Of a stretch of DNA of 64,000 bases, positions 41,290-46,833 are shown piece after piece (positions within the stretch are counted from its first letter, which is position 1; each line of letters begins with the position of its first letter). Position numbers and translations under genes: made by a program. The DNA is taken from positions 184,752 to 248,751 of the forward strand of contig CAVSLC010000002.1 of NCBI GenBank assembly GCA_963728565.1. Direction: 5' to 3'. The notes beneath the pieces were generated by a model that was not told the origin of the DNA, made no database searches, and saw only the letters and a program-made list of their open reading frames with translations. The stretch comes from an uncultured delta proteobacterium (GTDB lineage: Bacteria > Desulfobacterota > Binatia > UBA9968).

Positions 41290-41598
41290 TTAGAGCCTCT
41301 CGATCGAGCTTGCCCGGATCACCAGTTCGATTTGCCTGAAGCGCTGTTCCAGATCTGTTCGGTATTCACCCCACCACCGCCGGTTTAGTTCATCGGTCAT
41401 CACTTCAAAGATAACCACCTCATCGCGATTGATGGCGTTCTCAGCTATCCGCCAGAACCCTTGAGCCGGTGAACGCAGAAAAGCCGTGACCCCACCGAAA
41501 TGCTCGGTCAGCTCTTGCCGCACACAATCGAAAGCCTCAGGCGGAAATCGGGCGTTCAAATTATCGTATAGCGGTAAGAGTAGTTGAACGAGGTACAT
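41290..41598 (-). CDS. Conserved hypothetical protein
   Basis: MYLVQLLLPLYDN...FGGVTAF.RSPA.G.W. Confidence 0.7.
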   Translation of the reverse strand: MYLVQLLLPLYDNLNARFPPEAFDCVRQELTEHFGGVTAFLRSPAQGFWRIAENAINRDEVVIFEVMTDELNRRWWGEYRTDLEQRFRQIELVIRASSIERL

Positions 41599-41616
41599 GG
41601 CCATGCTCGTTGGTGT

Positions 41617-42279
41617 TCAGTGACCGTGGCGTTCGATTATCGCGAGCGCGGCGCGGCAGCAGAGAATGTCTTGTTCCGGGCGGCTCCCACCCGCCACACC
41701 GACTGCGCCAACGATGGTCACGCCATCAATGATCGGAATAGCTCCTCCCACCGGCATGATGCGACCGCGATGGGACATCGTCAGGCTGCGAAATCGCGCC
41801 TGACGTGCTTGGGGCGCCAGCTCGGCGGTGGCGACGTGAAAGGCGGCGGCGGTATATGCTTTGTTAAAGGCGAGTTCCGCCGTCATCGGTTCGGCAGTAT
41901 CCATTCGCCCCACGGCAATCGGCCCGCCCGCTTCATCGACCACAGCGGCTGTCACCGCCATCCCCATGATCTGGGCGTAGTCGTGCGCCGCCCGGATCAT
42001 CTGCCAAGCGGTCTCGAAGGAGACCGGGCCGGCGGCTGCCTTGTTTTTGCGAAAGAAGGCGGCGTTGACCTCAATAGCAGCTTGGTGCTCGACCGGAATA
42101 TCGATGTCCTTGAAGATTGCGTCCACCGGGCAGACGATTTCGCACTGCTCGCAGTCGATACACACTTCAGGATCGATGTAGAATTGGGGCGCGCCCGGTG
42201 TCGTATGGATGCAGGCAACCGGACAGACATCGACGCAGGCTCCGTCATTGGTGCACAGGCTGGTGATCACGTAGGGCAT
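41617..42279 (-). CDS. 7Fe-type ferredoxin fused to a GlcG/HbpS heme-binding domain
   Basis: MPYVITSLC..DGACVDVCPV..CIDCEQCEIVCPV, then AVVDEAG..RMD..KAYTA..GGAIPI..GAVGVAG. Confidence 0.88.
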   Translation of the reverse strand: MPYVITSLCTNDGACVDVCPVACIHTTPGAPQFYIDPEVCIDCEQCEIVCPVDAIFKDIDIPVEHQAAIEVNAAFFRKNKAAAGPVSFETAWQMIRAAHDYAQIMGMAVTAAVVDEAGGPIAVGRMDTAEPMTAELAFNKAYTAAAFHVATAELAPQARQARFRSLTMSHRGRIMPVGGAIPIIDGVTIVGAVGVAGGSRPEQDILCCRAALAIIERHGH

Positions 42280-42304
42280 TCCGATCGCTCCTTCGTCGCG
42301 AGCA

Positions 42305-42392
42305 GTTTCGATTGTTCCAATGGTTCCAACGGTTAGAATCGTTATGGCTTAAACCACCTGGAACAATTGGAACGTATGGAACGATTTGAACG
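42305..42392. repeat. Tandem-unit palindrome B (GTTCCA/TGGAAC, 9-bp period)
   Basis: gtttcgatt gttccaatg gttccaacg gttagaatc ... tggaacaat tggaacgta tggaacgat ttgaacg. Confidence 0.85.
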
Positions 42393-42395
42393 AGT

Positions 42396-43023
42396 TCATC
42401 TTTGTATGCCATCCGGTGCCAGAGGCAGATCCGTCAGGATAATATCTGCCACATGAACATCGGCGCCGTACTGAGGAGTTACTAATCGGCCGTGGCCGTT
42501 GATCTCGCCCAAACCGGCCACGGCGGCAAGCTTCTCGCCGCTAGCTTCCGGCGCGACCTTGGCGCGAAACCCGAGCTCCCTGATCCACGCGCTCAGCACG
42601 AAAGTTATGAACAGCCCGTTCTGCACCGGCACTTGCCCGCCAATGCCGGATGCGGTGCGTGGATCGTACTCAGCGCGAACGACGCAGACGACTCCGAACG
42701 GATATTCTTCTTCGATCTTACCATCCGCGGCTGGCGGGTAAGGCGAGGGTGATGGATTGTTCTCCGGTAATTTTACGATACCCACCAGATTCGCGCCGAA
42801 GTACTGCGCCATTCCCTTGACATGGCTTGAGGTAATCTCCGGTGTGTGGATATCGGCCTTGGTCGGAAAAACATTGCCGGGCGGAGCGTTGCGGATCAAC
42901 TCGGTCACTGTGTTGGCGAGATCGGCCGGCGGCGTGTTTATAAAGAAATCCCAGTATGGATCGGTCTTGTGAGGACCTCTTTTCAGCCCGCGGCACTTTG
43001 AAGGGACCCAATCGAAAGGTCAC
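42396..43023 (-). CDS. Stand-alone RdhA-like cobalamin-domain paralog lacking Fe-S motifs (frameshift near the 5' end)
   Basis: HVKGMAQYFGANLVGI, IRELGF, AGLGE, YG..ILTDLPL colinear with the upstream gene; GTG overlaps its TAG. Confidence 0.8.
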
Positions 43024-44348
43024 TAGGCATCCCGCTTGACGAACCGGTTGGTGTTCTCTTTTAGTGGCGCGTAGTAACCGAGGTTGCCGGCCACTTCTTT
43101 TGCCGGCCCTTTTCCCTCATGCGATGCGTTGCAGCCGGCAACGGTGCACGCCTGATCTCCCGGCTTGATACCGGAATCGTAGCCGAGCCAGCGCACGCGC
43201 TTGGTACGCGCGACTCCCCAGAAGCGGTCATCGATCCATTTGAGCGCGTGAACCAGAGCCGGCCGCGCCGGGATCGGACAGGTGCGCAACGACCATGTAG
43301 CGAGGCTGTGCCACCAGACATTGGGTTTGGTAAACGGGCAAACGGCAGCGCAGGTCAGGCAGCTGCCCCAGTAATCGTGGACATACGGCCGCAACTTGTA
43401 GCAGGTGAGCCAATTAATTTTGTACTTTTCGATGCCGTTGTGAACGACCTTATCGCCGAACGGAATGCTGTTGGTGGGACAAGTGTTAGCGCATTTGCGG
43501 CAAATTTTACAAAAATCTTCGACGGCGTTATCGACCGGCTGATCCGCTACCAGAGGAAGATCGGTCATGATCGGATCGGGCATGTGGATGCGCGCGCCGT
43601 AAGTTTTGTTTATGACCAGCCCGTTTCTCCCGAGTTCGCCGACTCCCGAAGCGACGCCGGCGGCCTGCGGCGTACAGACGCCGCGCAATGCCGTGTAGCC
43701 CAGCTCTTTGATGTAGCCCTCCAGAGCTTTCAGAATCATGTTGCCTTTGATTTGCGAGACGTGATACGCGGCATCGCCGATCAAGTGACGATGCGCCTGA
43801 AGCTTGTCGTAATCCCAGGCAGTGGTGGCGACGATGATATAGGGGAATTTTTTCACAAGATCCGCCGGGGAAGTTTCCTGATAGGCGTCCTCTGCCGTGC
43901 CGTCTTGAACGTAGCGGCTGCCGGCGTACAGGAAGGATGGATGCGCTTGGGCAATCGCGACAACGTCGGCGCCCATATAATGCGCCACCGCTTTGATGTG
44001 GCGCGACATCGCCGCCGCATCCGGCACCTCTATTTTTCTCGGATTGACCTTGCCCTTGGTGGCCTGGTTGATGATGGTGCTGAGAAAATGGCGGCGGTCG
44101 GCAAAATGGTTTGGCGCCGAAACCCGGGTCAGAGGATCCTTGGAGACGGTGTTGTGATACCAGTTGAAAAGAGGCTTGCCCAATTCGCCGCGCTGATTTT
44201 TCGGATGCGGCGACTGATTCATGTCGACATTTACCACCGGTCCAACGATGCGGACCGAGCGGCCGAGGTAGGGTGGAGGCGGGATATTTGCCTGACCATT
44301 TGTGCTCTCGGTGGATTGTTCAGCGGGCTTTTGTAATGTCACAGCCAT
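43023..44348 (-). CDS. Reductive dehalogenase-like B12/2x[4Fe-4S] protein, no Tat signal
   Basis: IKAVAHYMGADVV, GVGELGRNG, TDLPL..D.P, FCKICRKCANTCP, C-x13-CLTCAAVCPFTK. Confidence 0.88.
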   Translation of the reverse strand: MAVTLQKPAEQSTESTNGQANIPPPPYLGRSVRIVGPVVNVDMNQSPHPKNQRGELGKPLFNWYHNTVSKDPLTRVSAPNHFADRRHFLSTIINQATKGKVNPRKIEVPDAAAMSRHIKAVAHYMGADVVAIAQAHPSFLYAGSRYVQDGTAEDAYQETSPADLVKKFPYIIVATTAWDYDKLQAHRHLIGDAAYHVSQIKGNMILKALEGYIKELGYTALRGVCTPQAAGVASGVGELGRNGLVINKTYGARIHMPDPIMTDLPLVADQPVDNAVEDFCKICRKCANTCPTNSIPFGDKVVHNGIEKYKINWLTCYKLRPYVHDYWGSCLTCAAVCPFTKPNVWWHSLATWSLRTCPIPARPALVHALKWIDDRFWGVARTKRVRWLGYDSGIKPGDQACTVAGCNASHEGKGPAKEVAGNLGYYAPLKENTNRFVKRDA

Positions 44349-44367
44349 GATGCCTCCGTGTAAAGAG

Positions 44368-44459
44368 GTTCAACAGTTCAAACGTTCAACAGTTCAAGGT
44401 CAGAGGTCGTAGTGTTTCCGGCTGACGTTGAACTTTTGAACCATTGAACGGTTGAACGG
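44368..44459. repeat. Tandem-unit palindrome C (GTTCAA/TTGAAC, 8-bp period)
   Basis: gttcaaca gttcaaac gttcaaca gttcaagg ... ttgaactt ttgaacca ttgaacgg ttgaacgg. Confidence 0.9.
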
Positions 44460-44468
44460 CATTGTTGT

Positions 44469-44867
44469 TTATTGGTACGACGCCAACGCCACTTCAGCGC
44501 AGCGTTGGTCCTGATCTTCGGTGCCGCCGGCCACCGCCACCGCGCCGACAACCGCGCCGCCTTCGACAATTGGCAGCGCGCCCGCGCCCGGCATGATGCG
44601 TCCGTTGCTTGACACGACCAGGCTCTGAAACCATGTTTGGCCGGCGACTCCGGCCAGCTCCTTGGTGGGTTGCTGAAAACTGGCGGCGGTGTAGGCCTTG
44701 TTCAGGGCGATTTCTACGGTAATCGGACGGGCCCGGTCCATTCTGCCCAGCGCAATCATTCGGCCACTCTGATCAACCACTACCGCTGTTACCGCGATGT
44801 CCAACTGCGTTGCCTGCGTATGCGCGTTGCGCACCATTTGAATTGCTTTTTCTCCGGGGATGGCCAT
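44469..44867 (-). CDS. GlcG/HbpS family heme-binding protein
   Basis: VVVDQSG..RMD..ALNKAYTAA..GALPI..GAVAVAGG..QD. Confidence 0.9.
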   Translation of the reverse strand: MAIPGEKAIQMVRNAHTQATQLDIAVTAVVVDQSGRMIALGRMDRARPITVEIALNKAYTAASFQQPTKELAGVAGQTWFQSLVVSSNGRIMPGAGALPIVEGGAVVGAVAVAGGTEDQDQRCAEVALASYQ

Positions 44868-45091: not shown

Positions 45092-46621
45092 TCAGTCGGA
45101 TTTGCCGGAATTCGCGATTGCAAGTTCCGGCCGATCCGGTGCCGGCCAGTCCAAATGGAATAATCTGCCGCGCGGCTGATCGGTGCGTTCGTAGGTGTGC
45201 GCGCCGAAGTAATCTCGCTGCGCTTGGAGTAAATTGGCCGGCAGCTGTGCCGACCGGTAGCCATCGTAATACGCCAGCGCCGACATGAATGCGGGAACGG
45301 CAATGCCCGCTTGCGCGGCTATCGCGACCACGGAACGCCAGCGCGACTGAGTTTTCTGAATCTGCTCCTTGAAGTACGGATCGAGCAGCAAATTCACCAG
45401 TCGCGGCTCGCGCCTATACGCATCGGTGATCTTTTGCAGGAAACGCGCGCGAATGATGCAGCCGCCACGCCAGATAGCGGCGATGGAGGCGAAATCGAAC
45501 TTCCACTTGTATTCGCTCTCGGCCGCGCGCATGAGCTGAAAGCCTTGCGCATAAGCGCAGATTTTCGAACAGTAGAGCGCATCGCGAACCGAATCGATCA
45601 GTTCCTCGCGGTTGCCGGTATAGCTGTATTCCGGGCCAATTAATTGTTTGGATGCTTCCACTCGCTCATCTTTGAGCGCGCTCAGATTGCGCGCGAAGAC
45701 CGCCTCGGCGATCGCATTGGCCGGAATTCCCATATCCAGTGCGTTGACACTGGTCCATTTGCCGGTCCCTTTCTGCTGGGCGGTGTCGAGAATATGGTCG
45801 ACGAGAAATGAATCCGGCTTCTGCGGATCCCGCTGCTTTAGAATGTCCGCGGTGATTTCGATCAAGTAAGAATCGAGATCCCCTTCGTTCCAACGCGCGA
45901 AAGTTTGCGAGAGCTCATCGGGCTCGGCGCCAAGCAGGTTGCGCATCAGGAAGTAAGCCTCGGAGATCAACTGCATGTCGATGTACTCGATGCCGTTGTG
46001 GATCATTTTGACGTAGTGGCCGGCGCCGTTCTCGCCGATGTAGGCCGTGCAAGGGATTCCACCTACTACAGGTTGGCCTGGCTTGGCGGTTTCAATCGCT
46101 TTGCCGGTTTCGGGATCAACCTTGGCGGCGATGGCTTTCCAGATCGGCTCGAGATGCTGCCATGCTTGCGCATCGCCGCCGGGCATCAAGGATGGGCCGA
46201 AGCGCGCGCCGATTTCACCGCCGGAAACTCCGGAGCCGAAGAAGCGACAATGACCGGCATAGTCTTTCTCGCGCCGGATGGTGTCGGTCCACAGGCTGTT
46301 GCCGCAATCGATTACGAGGTCGTCCTTTTCCAGCCCGTCATCCATGAGCTGTCGGGTCACGGTATCGACGGCTGGGCCTGCTTTAACGAGAATGATGATC
46401 TTGCGCGGCTTCTTGATCGCCGCCAGCAGCTCAGGCAACGTCGCGCATCCAATCAGACCGCCCGGAGTGTCAGGGTTGGCCGCAATGAAGTCTTTCATCA
46501 CCTGTGTCGTGCGATTGTAGACAGCGACTCTAAAGCCATGATCCGCAATGTTCAGGGCCAGGTTTTCGCCCATAACTGCCAAGCCGATCAGGCCGATATC
46601 CGCCAGCTTCTCAGTAGCCAT
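45092..46621 (-). CDS. gnd: 6-phosphogluconate dehydrogenase (decarboxylating)
   Basis: [45 protein letters not shown]. Confidence 0.97.
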
Positions 46622-46833
46622 GCTCTGATCTCCTTTTCGGGGACTTTGAGGATCGCGCCGGTGTGTGATGCCTGTGAGGAGTCTAACAGCCGGCGGTAAA
46701 AACAAAAGCGCCCCGGGCGACAATCACGTTCCAGTGGATCGTCGCGCGGAGCGGCACCACGCTCATAGAAAAATCTTGACCTAAAGACCCGCATGTCATA
46801 GGTAACATTCGACCAAGCTCAAAGGAGTTTTAA

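Follow-up and report, generated by a model that had tools for sequence, protein, structure and literature searches.

A conserved four-gene locus for a predicted cytoplasmic RdhA-type protein with a rebuilt pocket, a putative trans-encoded vestigial core, and DUF336 partners

The 64,000-nucleotide (nt) stretch analysed here (the window; positions 184,752 to 248,751 of contig CAVSLC010000002.1, assembly GCA_963728565.1) comes from an uncultured delta proteobacterium of the Binatia and carries, at window positions 41617-44867, four minus-strand open reading frames (ORFs) arranged head to tail, referred to below as G1 to G4. An initial annotation had described four co-oriented genes forming a cobalamin redox operon around an RdhA-like enzyme; the four genes were found as described, and their order is kept in dozens of loci. 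Phylogenetic placement, conserved neighbourhood, and RNA-library contigs together indicate a real, conserved, apparently expressed, and uncharacterized RdhA-type variant whose subunit composition is new and whose active site has been rebuilt. To our knowledge, carbon–halogen bonds are cleaved by no B12 enzymes other than those of the RdhA type, and characterized soluble examples are very few. The genes are as follows.

G1, 44469-44867, minus strand: free DUF336/HbpS-like (GlcG-type) protein of 132 amino acids (aa), counted from an ATG; PF03928
G2, 43023-44348, minus strand: soluble RdhA-like catalytic subunit of 441 aa; TIGR02486, two [4Fe-4S] motifs
G3, 42396-42908, minus strand: truncated copy of the RdhA core without Fe-S motifs, 170 aa, GTG start; TIGR02486
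G4, 41617-42279, minus strand: fusion of a 7Fe-type ferredoxin with a DUF336 domain, 220 aa; Fer4 and PF03928

Successive genes are separated by only 120, 114, and 116 nt. The open frame of G1 extends to 45020, and its homologues begin at the ATG of the 44469-44867 version. PF03928 is present in both G1 and G4, so that two GlcG/HbpS domains do lie around G2, as had been noticed initially.

A scan of a genome collection with G2 returned 101 relatives, from which 80 loci were retained and subjected to tblastn and ORF calling. All 80 derive from metagenome-assembled genomes (MAGs), with no cultured host among them, and their record titles name Binatia, "delta proteobacteria", Rokubacteria/Methylomirabilota, Acidobacteria-type MAGs, Chloroflexota, Eremiobacterota, and Dehalococcoidia/SAR202—labels that are only as reliable as the MAG bins, as binning can misplace contigs. 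G2 is full length in 77/80 loci. Downstream genes were counted where the flank on that side reached at least 1500 nt (64 loci), and upstream genes where it reached at least 700 nt (72 loci): G3 lies downstream of G2 in 63/64 loci, G3 and G4 together in 61/64, and G1 lies upstream in 56/72. The neighbourhood singled out by the initial annotation is thus a conserved one, and these counts argue for a core of G2, G3, and G4 to which G1 was added in soil clades; the 16/72 loci without G1 are the most divergent (at most 60% identity) and mostly belong to Dehalococcoidia.

A few loci depart from this pattern. In L054 (1-1949), a G4-like gene stands upstream of G2, and neither G3 nor G4 was found downstream; in L020 and L026, G3 is a longer ORF (197 and 179 aa, respectively), and G4 was not detected. 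Two Dehalococcoidia chromosomes (L068, 5944-8663; L069, 6001-8730) carry a tandem pair of full-length G2 genes, approximately 52% identical to the G2 of the window, followed by a single G3 and G4. A fusion of G3 with G4 in Dehalococcoidia, suggested by 414-aa frames in L074 and L079, was rejected on account of an in-frame stop between the two genes.

Among 151 genomes sampled from the class, all four genes occur together, adjacent on one contig, in the same seven (the source genome included; 5/74 genera), a co-occurrence that is no statistical test because the carrier genomes are related. When the flanking ORFs of the 80 loci were clustered, no further consistently linked gene emerged, the commonest extra cluster being an NMT1/THI5-like binding protein in 19/80 loci. 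No family member was found in a plasmid collection, where the best matches were other RdhAs of at most 29% identity.

All four genes are under purifying selection, with ratios of nonsynonymous to synonymous substitution rates (dN/dS) of 0-0.08 for G1, 0.05-0.09 for G2, 0.10-0.26 for G3, and 0.05-0.10 for G4. In comparisons with L005, L012, and L014, dS is saturated although the proteins are 80-96% identical; because synonymous sites are saturated, this protein identity mirrors constraint and not recent transfer alone. Furthermore, contigs from soil RNA (four libraries from four studies), which belong to relatives, span all four genes at 90-99% identity, and the set is apparently expressed. Single RNA-library contigs bridge the G1-G2 and G2-G3 junctions; no clear bridging of the G3-G4 junction was seen among the contigs listed, which is uninformative either way.

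With respect to G2 itself, Pfam returned only Fe-S dicluster models (Fer4_7, 1.2e-7). The two Fe-S motifs, CxxCxxCxxxCP and C...CxxCxxxCP, lie C-terminal to the core, and their eight cysteines (C280, C283, C286, C290, C316, C330, C333, and C337) are invariant among 33 orthologues. On inspection, the N-terminus of G2 contains neither an RR motif nor a hydrophobic stretch that would denote a Tat leader, and the Tat motif is likewise absent from the family representatives P0121 and P0124. The gaps of 114-120 nt leave no space for an rdhB gene, the neighbours of G2 being G1 and G3. Thus, the initial description of an RdhA-like enzyme with two 4Fe-4S motifs, and with neither a Tat leader nor an RdhB anchor, holds for this gene.

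In a single-sequence search of the PDB, NpRdhA was the best match (4.6e-27), with PceA also close and QueG far behind (5d6s, 1.6e-9); a profile of the 33-sequence G2 family gave 2.3e-38 for PceA, 1.7e-34 for NpRdhA, and 3.9e-11 for QueG. Foldseek, run with an AlphaFold2 (AF2) model of G2, placed RdhA structures on top (E 5e-15 to 1e-13), the same ranking as that of the sequence search. Among 1.84 billion representative sequences, 2089 relatives of G2 were found, 55 of them at E<=1e-30, and the scores fall steeply: the representatives of the family itself reach 518 bits (54% identity), P0128, which comes next among full-length proteins, has 260 bits (39%), and ordinary RdhAs follow at ~30-36% identity. 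For a quick maximum-likelihood tree, representatives were admitted from 340 aa upwards; 87 of them were used and 61 shorter ones excluded, and the family fragments P0123 and P0149 were also set aside. Together with the window, 14 family loci, and, as outgroup, the QueG of the same genome, this made 103 rows. In this tree, which has a long outgroup branch and support only from the Shimodaira–Hasegawa-like approximate likelihood ratio test (SH-aLRT), the G2 family forms a single clade (SH-aLRT 100, stem 0.69) with P0128 as its sister (99). With a support of 86, the two stand beside P0141/P0148 and a clade that includes P0266, an NpRdhA-like protein (654 bits to 4ras); QueG is a distant outgroup. 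The locus search gave no match for P0128. By this tree, the G2 clade lies inside the RdhA radiation, with the catabolic lineage of NpRdhA nearest to it and QueG far away.

These placements bear on whether G2 is a second epoxyqueuosine reductase or a respiratory RdhA without its partners, with G3 as a decaying remnant. The former has in its favour a weak similarity—51 bits to the QueG model TIGR00276, together with the above match to 5d6s—and a database name, as one source calls a relative "QueG", while databases otherwise auto-label the family "reductive dehalogenase". However, 51 bits is far below the cut-off of 200, the genome has a genuine QueG elsewhere (C23:134358-135275, 376.5 bits against the same cut-off), and QueG sits on a long outgroup branch; G2 was therefore rejected as a QueG isozyme. 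It was likewise rejected as a respiratory RdhA, given the missing Tat motif and gaps too short for RdhB. The idea that G3 is a remnant conflicts with its being intact in 63/64 loci and under purifying selection. This explanation as a whole is considered extremely improbable. No other reductive dehalogenase (RDH)-like gene was found in the genome. On tree and profile evidence, G2 is a cytoplasmic RdhA-type protein and not QueG, in keeping with the soluble RdhA-like enzyme initially proposed; it does not nest in QueG and forms a clade of its own.

The catalytic pocket departs from that of known RdhAs, which the initial annotation had overlooked. The proton donor of NpRdhA is Y426, which is paired with K488 in a dyad, Y246 being the equivalent tyrosine in PceA; the substrate hydroxyl is held by K488, R552, and S422, the pocket is lined by A419 and M423, and the K488Q variant is inactive (Halliwell et al., 2020; PMC7565698). 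Residues were mapped onto G2 from the family profile alignment, which is gap-free over the helix and anchored on a conserved ELGY motif; it was trusted over the single-sequence alignment, in which this region is gap-shifted, because PceA and NpRdhA agree in the profile. The correspondences are as follows.

NpRdhA Y426 / PceA Y246: Q199 in G2, variable (Q/S/A/L/T/G)
NpRdhA K488 / PceA R305: H255 in G2, variable (H/N/Q)
NpRdhA R552: R320 in G2, invariant
NpRdhA A419: D192 in G2, invariant
NpRdhA S422: Y195 in G2, invariant
NpRdhA M423: H196 in G2, invariant

In addition, the invariant H186-R187-H188 precede D192/Y195/H196, giving the family motif AHRHxIGDxxYH (H186-H196 in G2), which in the form AHRHx[IV]GDxxY is present in 77/77 full-length members and is missing from the sister protein P0128. 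The invariant polar or basic pocket set comprises H186, R187, H188, D192, Y195, H196, R253, and R320. As mapped, the pocket of G2 is rebuilt into a polar, largely basic site. The invariant Y195 lies four residues before the canonical tyrosine position, one helical turn away, and could serve as an alternative proton donor. Because neither the canonical tyrosine nor its Lys/Arg partner is conserved, dehalogenation by the textbook mechanism is not assured; with those positions variable and the pocket rebuilt, the natural substrate is probably a polar or anionic compound, unlike the halophenols of NpRdhA.

Two accounts of the chemistry have to be weighed against these residues. The first takes G2 as an ordinary catabolic reductive dehalogenase, like NpRdhA, BhbA, and JtRdhA, acting on natural soil or marine organohalides, with the other proteins as an accessory ferredoxin and chaperones. 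Its nearest solved and phylogenetic relatives are indeed catabolic and respiratory RdhAs, R320 is invariant at the position of NpRdhA R552, Y195 is only one helical turn from the canonical position, and the database label agrees. Nevertheless, the canonical Tyr and Lys/Arg positions vary, the K488Q exchange inactivates NpRdhA (PMC7565698), other pocket positions are now invariantly charged or polar, and the match of G2 to the NCBIfam RDH model TIGR02486 (142.8 bits) lies under its cut-off of 160.35. Furthermore, no aromatic-catabolism genes are consistently linked, the top extra neighbour being the NMT1-type protein of 19/80 loci. An ordinary dehalogenase is thus a possible explanation, albeit a doubtful one.

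The second account is that G2 is a class-III cobalamin enzyme with non-dehalogenase chemistry, which reduces, for instance, an epoxide or a different C–O, C–N, or C–S bond of a polar metabolite in the manner of QueG, for which epoxyqueuosine as substrate provides the precedent (PMC7585037). The strongly polar, basic, invariant pocket and the loss of the dehalogenase dyad favour it, and the very high conservation across distant lineages with saturated dS would fit a defined natural substrate. On the other hand, no substrate is positively indicated, the tree places the family among the RdhAs, away from QueG, and its patchy distribution in the class (7/151 genomes) argues against a housekeeping role. 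We regard this chemistry, too, as tentative.

G3 has no Pfam match and aligns with the middle of TIGR02486 (2.3e-15). When the G2 and G3 families were compared with hhalign, residues 1-169 of G3 aligned with 89-272 of G2 at a probability of 99.8 and 24% identity; G3 lacks the HRH segment and has other residues in place of D192 and Y195. The C-terminus of G3, TDLPLAPDG, coincides with the exact boundary between the core and the Fe-S domain in G2. The AF2 model of G3 has a mean predicted local distance difference test score (pLDDT) of 84.4, and its structural alignment by VIA-align yielded Z 15.2 for NpRdhA (other chains align over 340-505), 14.0 for PceA (126-322), and ~13 for QueG, with weaker matches to CblD, CblC, and nitroreductases at Z 7-8.6. 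A complex of G2 with G3 was predicted with a score of 0.87 (0.88, 0.87, and 0.87), compared with 0.40 for the best control; this mark was attained by 58/80 solved complexes and 2/110 mismatched pairs, a calibration that is only rough because alignments built for this analysis were used. The runs share at least 96% of contacts, with partner pLDDT of at least 81, and the predicted interface brings helix 193-212 of the G2 core together with helix 96-113 of G3, with additional contributions from G2 72-96 and 388-410.

Catabolic RdhAs contain a fused, vestigial, cobalamin-free duplicate of the core, whose contact with the real core resembles the monomer–monomer contact in respiratory RdhAs (Fisher et al., 2023; PMC10463259). 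By profile, model, and complex prediction, G3 is best read as a core of this vestigial kind that is provided in trans, NpRdhA having its own in cis; the initial annotation had rightly seen a paralogue without Fe-S clusters, and it is the vestigial role in trans that describes it better. A G3 profile gave 88-100 bits with G2-family cores and 21.6 bits with the N-domain of P0266, which is NpRdhA-like, so that kinship of G3 with the vestigial N-domain of NpRdhA was not supported; being most similar to G2's own core, G3 probably had an independent origin. Other arrangements of the core were seen in P0141 (603 aa), where an Fe-S-less core is fused ahead of a complete RdhA, and in P0140 (685 aa), where the CxxCxxCxxxCP motif and the match to the core each occur twice. 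The comparison suggests that core duplication is recurrent in soluble RdhAs and that a vestigial partner has arisen repeatedly, here as a separate gene.

The remaining two proteins share the DUF336 domain. G1 matches PF03928 at 4.3e-28 (98.3 bits) and residues 87-213 of G4 do so at 7.2e-30 (104.1 bits; cut-off 25 for both), the C-terminal domain of G4 being ~55% identical to G1. G1 is the most conserved of the four genes, with a mean column identity of 87% over 18 orthologues and invariant H16 and C123. Its closest solved relative is Klebsiella OrfY (2a2l, 7.8e-23), followed by NahX, PduOC, EfgA, and HbpS. The N-terminal part of G4 (residues 1 to about 55-60) is a ferredoxin (Fer4, 3.9e-13) with invariant cysteines at positions 9, 15, 19, 23, 40, 43, 46, and 50, the first CxxCxxC lacking its middle cysteine, a pattern that we take to denote a 7Fe ferredoxin ([3Fe-4S] plus [4Fe-4S]). 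Its origin as the split-off Fe-S domain of an RdhA paralogue was not supported: the best matches are FdxA-type, and RDH is not among the matches listed.

Full B12-dependent use of propanediol requires the heme-binding PduO-C, heme and aquocobalamin are both ligands of HbpS, and OrfY is part of a B12-linked cluster (PMC4923194). By analogy, a role of DUF336 in handling or re-activating the corrinoid, or in tethering the ferredoxin, is plausible as a guess. Tetrapyrrole handling by these domains, as initially proposed, stays at that level: the heme ligand of PduOC (5cx7), His18, aligns with Ile9 of G1, and the PduO-C binding mode is therefore not conserved there. The missing ligand, together with the occurrence of the redox-sensing accessory protein HbpS (PMC4923194) and of EfgA among the solved relatives, would also suit an alternative in which the two DUF336 proteins, G1 and G4, have a sensory or regulatory function in the style of HbpS or EfgA, responding to redox state, heme, or aldehyde, and are neither subunits nor corrinoid handlers. 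A partner fits better with the fusion to a ferredoxin, the strict co-occurrence and adjacency with G2 and G3, and the extreme conservation of G1 (dN/dS at most 0.08), which is more in keeping with a structural or catalytic role; no kinase or transcription factor is conserved nearby in the 80 loci, and the closest solved relative of G1 comes from the B12-linked dha cluster. A sensory function is accordingly judged improbable.

Two further observations touch on these proteins. The C-terminal tail of G2 (residues ~383-441; window 43023-43200) carries a Cx4Cx3H motif that occurs together with G1 in 55 loci, with both lacking in 12, the motif alone in 4, and G1 alone in 1; the motif may mark a docking site for G1 or a metal site, a hint that amounts essentially to one clade difference. 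The genome contains six DUF336 genes, four of which lie outside the operon (two in tandem at C5:206022-206909, and one each at C10:240044-240430 and C11:189639-190028).

The reading that we favour, with a probability of roughly 0.6, is a conserved operon for a cytoplasmic multi-subunit class-III cobalamin enzyme of the reductive-dehalogenase/QueG superfamily. G2 would pass electrons through its two [4Fe-4S] clusters to a corrinoid presumed to be bound in its nitroreductase-type core. The G3 core, which lacks the Fe-S domain and active-site motif, is predicted to pack helix to helix on the core of G2, and this pairing would amount to a pseudo-dimer formed in trans, which NpRdhA gets from its fused vestigial domain and PceA from homodimerization. 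G4 would be the dedicated 7Fe-type ferredoxin, acting as immediate electron donor to, or re-activator of, G2, and would itself be charged by a housekeeping reductase encoded elsewhere. Its DUF336 domain and the paralogous G1 may tether G4 to the enzyme and/or hold, protect, and deliver the corrinoid, a role suggested by the analogy with PduO-C and OrfY of the B12-dependent pdu and dha systems. The chemistry would be a two-electron reductive cleavage driven by cob(I)/cob(II), on a substrate that may or may not be halogenated. A further reading, of a functionally new type of class-III cobalamin enzyme—a non-dehalogenase heteromeric G2/G3/G4(/G1) complex that reduces a polar natural metabolite in its rebuilt pocket lined by His, Arg, Asp, and Tyr, with DUF336 as the long-sought dedicated corrinoid chaperone or reductive re-activator—is put forward only tentatively.

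Several observations weigh against the favoured reading. Besides the sub-threshold TIGR02486 score, no match of G2 to the Pfam Dehalogenase model was obtained at E<=0.01, the AF2 model of G2 alone is mediocre (pLDDT 59.7), and, as the canonical positions vary, G2 may be no dehalogenase at all. The complex score, apart from its rough calibration, may show likeness and not binding because similar contacts occur in solved structures, and it may reflect the model's memory of PceA dimers and the NpRdhA fold. The ferredoxin of G4 is closest to the FdxA type, at scores below the cut-offs of both models (FdxA_Actino, 74 bits against 125; FdxA_fam, 48.2 bits against 65), and the operon has no linked ferredoxin reductase. 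On the DUF336 side, the PduOC ligand is replaced in G1, the relatives of the domain include the formaldehyde sensor EfgA and proteins without known role, and the absence of G1 from Dehalococcoidia-type loci means that it is dispensable for the core. Finally, RNA-library contigs can hold DNA, and a two-gene contig is no proof of a single transcript.

The soluble catabolic RdhAs NpRdhA (4RAS, 6ZXU-6ZY1), BhbA, and JtRdhA resemble G2 in lacking both Tat and RdhB and in combining a nitroreductase-type corrinoid core with two [4Fe-4S] motifs, and they resemble the G2/G3 pair in that the catalytic core is matched with a vestigial Fe-S-less copy. In contrast to these enzymes, G2 has a single core, its vestigial copy being the separate downstream gene G3 and not an N-terminal fusion; it lacks a fused NAD(P)H reductase module, is only ~24-30% identical to them, and is accompanied by DUF336 proteins and a 7Fe-type ferredoxin. 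PceA of Sulfurospirillum (4UQU) and the RDH complex 8Q4H have the same fold and Fe-S motifs as G2, and the long-helix interface predicted for G2:G3 recalls a dimer-type contact, for which the PceA dimer is the comparison drawn by Fisher et al. (2023; PMC10463259); unlike the PceA homodimer, however, the G2 complex is predicted to be a heteromer with a degenerate partner, and the positions of Tyr246 and Arg305 are not conserved.

"Simplified cytosolic" RdhA-like proteins without the vestigial domain have been described from Chloroflexota and Desulfobacterota (Han et al., 2025; PMC12219181). They share with G2 a short length (~395-440 aa), a cytosolic location, the lack of a fused vestigial domain, and an occurrence in uncultured lineages including Chloroflexota, and the G2 family would belong under this heading. 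No vestigial domain in trans, DUF336 partner, or altered motif is mentioned in the passages of that study consulted here, and its supplementary tables may list neighbours.

QueG (5D08, 5D6S) belongs to the same class-III cobalamin superfamily and is likewise cytoplasmic; it has no partners like G1, G3, and G4, and is the precedent for non-halide substrates. The pairing of an active B12-binding nitroreductase-fold protein with a related partner, as proposed for G2 and G3 (G3 Z ~8), has an analogue in CblC-CblD (MMACHC-MMADHC), where CblD is a non-catalytic homologue of CblC; the identity is 10-14%, and both proteins serve trafficking in eukaryotes and contain no Fe-S clusters, so that the likeness is one of analogy and not of membership. 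Finally, PduO's C-terminal domain (5CX7), OrfY (2A2L), HbpS, and EfgA share PF03928 with G1 and the C-domain of G4, with the difference from PduOC that G1 lacks the His18 ligand and has its own invariant His16 and Cys123. The initial annotation did not recognize the arrangement from described rdh clusters, and no literature on the G1-G4 operon was found here either: full-text searches for reductive dehalogenase with HbpS or Binatia and for DUF336 with dehalogenase returned no papers, and the operon is not described among the papers listed by broader searches. The literature searched likewise yielded no description of a DUF336-ferredoxin fusion or of an RdhA-type enzyme linked to DUF336.

A Pfam scan of flanking genes identified Gnd, a polysaccharide deacetylase, a carboxylase subunit, an ACT protein, and PrpD. 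Neither an NAD(P)H:ferredoxin reductase nor a 2Fe-2S module was found among them, as the initial annotation had said, and no fused NAD(P)H-dependent reductase domain was found in G2 or in these genes. Of the self-contained system initially envisaged, the dedicated ferredoxin is thus present at the locus, and the reductase to load it is not. The gnd gene (NADP-dependent 6-phosphogluconate dehydrogenase, 679 bits; 45092-46723, minus strand) is the gene immediately upstream of G1, in the same orientation, and adjoins G1 only in five close loci (L001-L003, L007, and L014); it is a source of NADPH and not a conserved partner. On the other side, a 104-aa ORF (41290-41604, minus strand) begins 12 nt past the G4 stop and has no Pfam or NCBIfam match; it recurs only in L001 and L003, the loci closest to the window (95-96% identity), and as fragments in L005, which places it outside the conserved set. 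No cobalamin riboswitch or other Rfam family was found at 30000-56000. The scans for promoters (6 promoter-like sites against 2.0 expected, none upstream of G1) and terminators (4 terminator-like sites against 5.1 expected) were uninformative. In the genome assembly as a whole (4.5 Mb), cobS and cbiB gave no match, which at 80.55% completeness is no proof of absence; the host, which does have the B12-dependent QueG, may import corrinoids.

The G2 clade is widespread in uncultured soil and ocean lineages, and surveys that count its members as "reductive dehalogenase" may mis-assign their function because the textbook catalytic residues are missing. That the vestigial subunit is a separate gene suggests more than one origin of the pseudo-dimer solution among these proteins. 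The ferredoxin-DUF336 fusion would offer a handle on the electron supply to cytoplasmic RdhAs and on the role of DUF336 beside B12 enzymes, and the proteins concerned all appear to be small and soluble. If DUF336 does act here as a corrinoid chaperone or re-activator, this would for the first time give a defined biochemical role to the DUF336 fold that accompanies B12 enzymes, as in PduO-C and OrfY.

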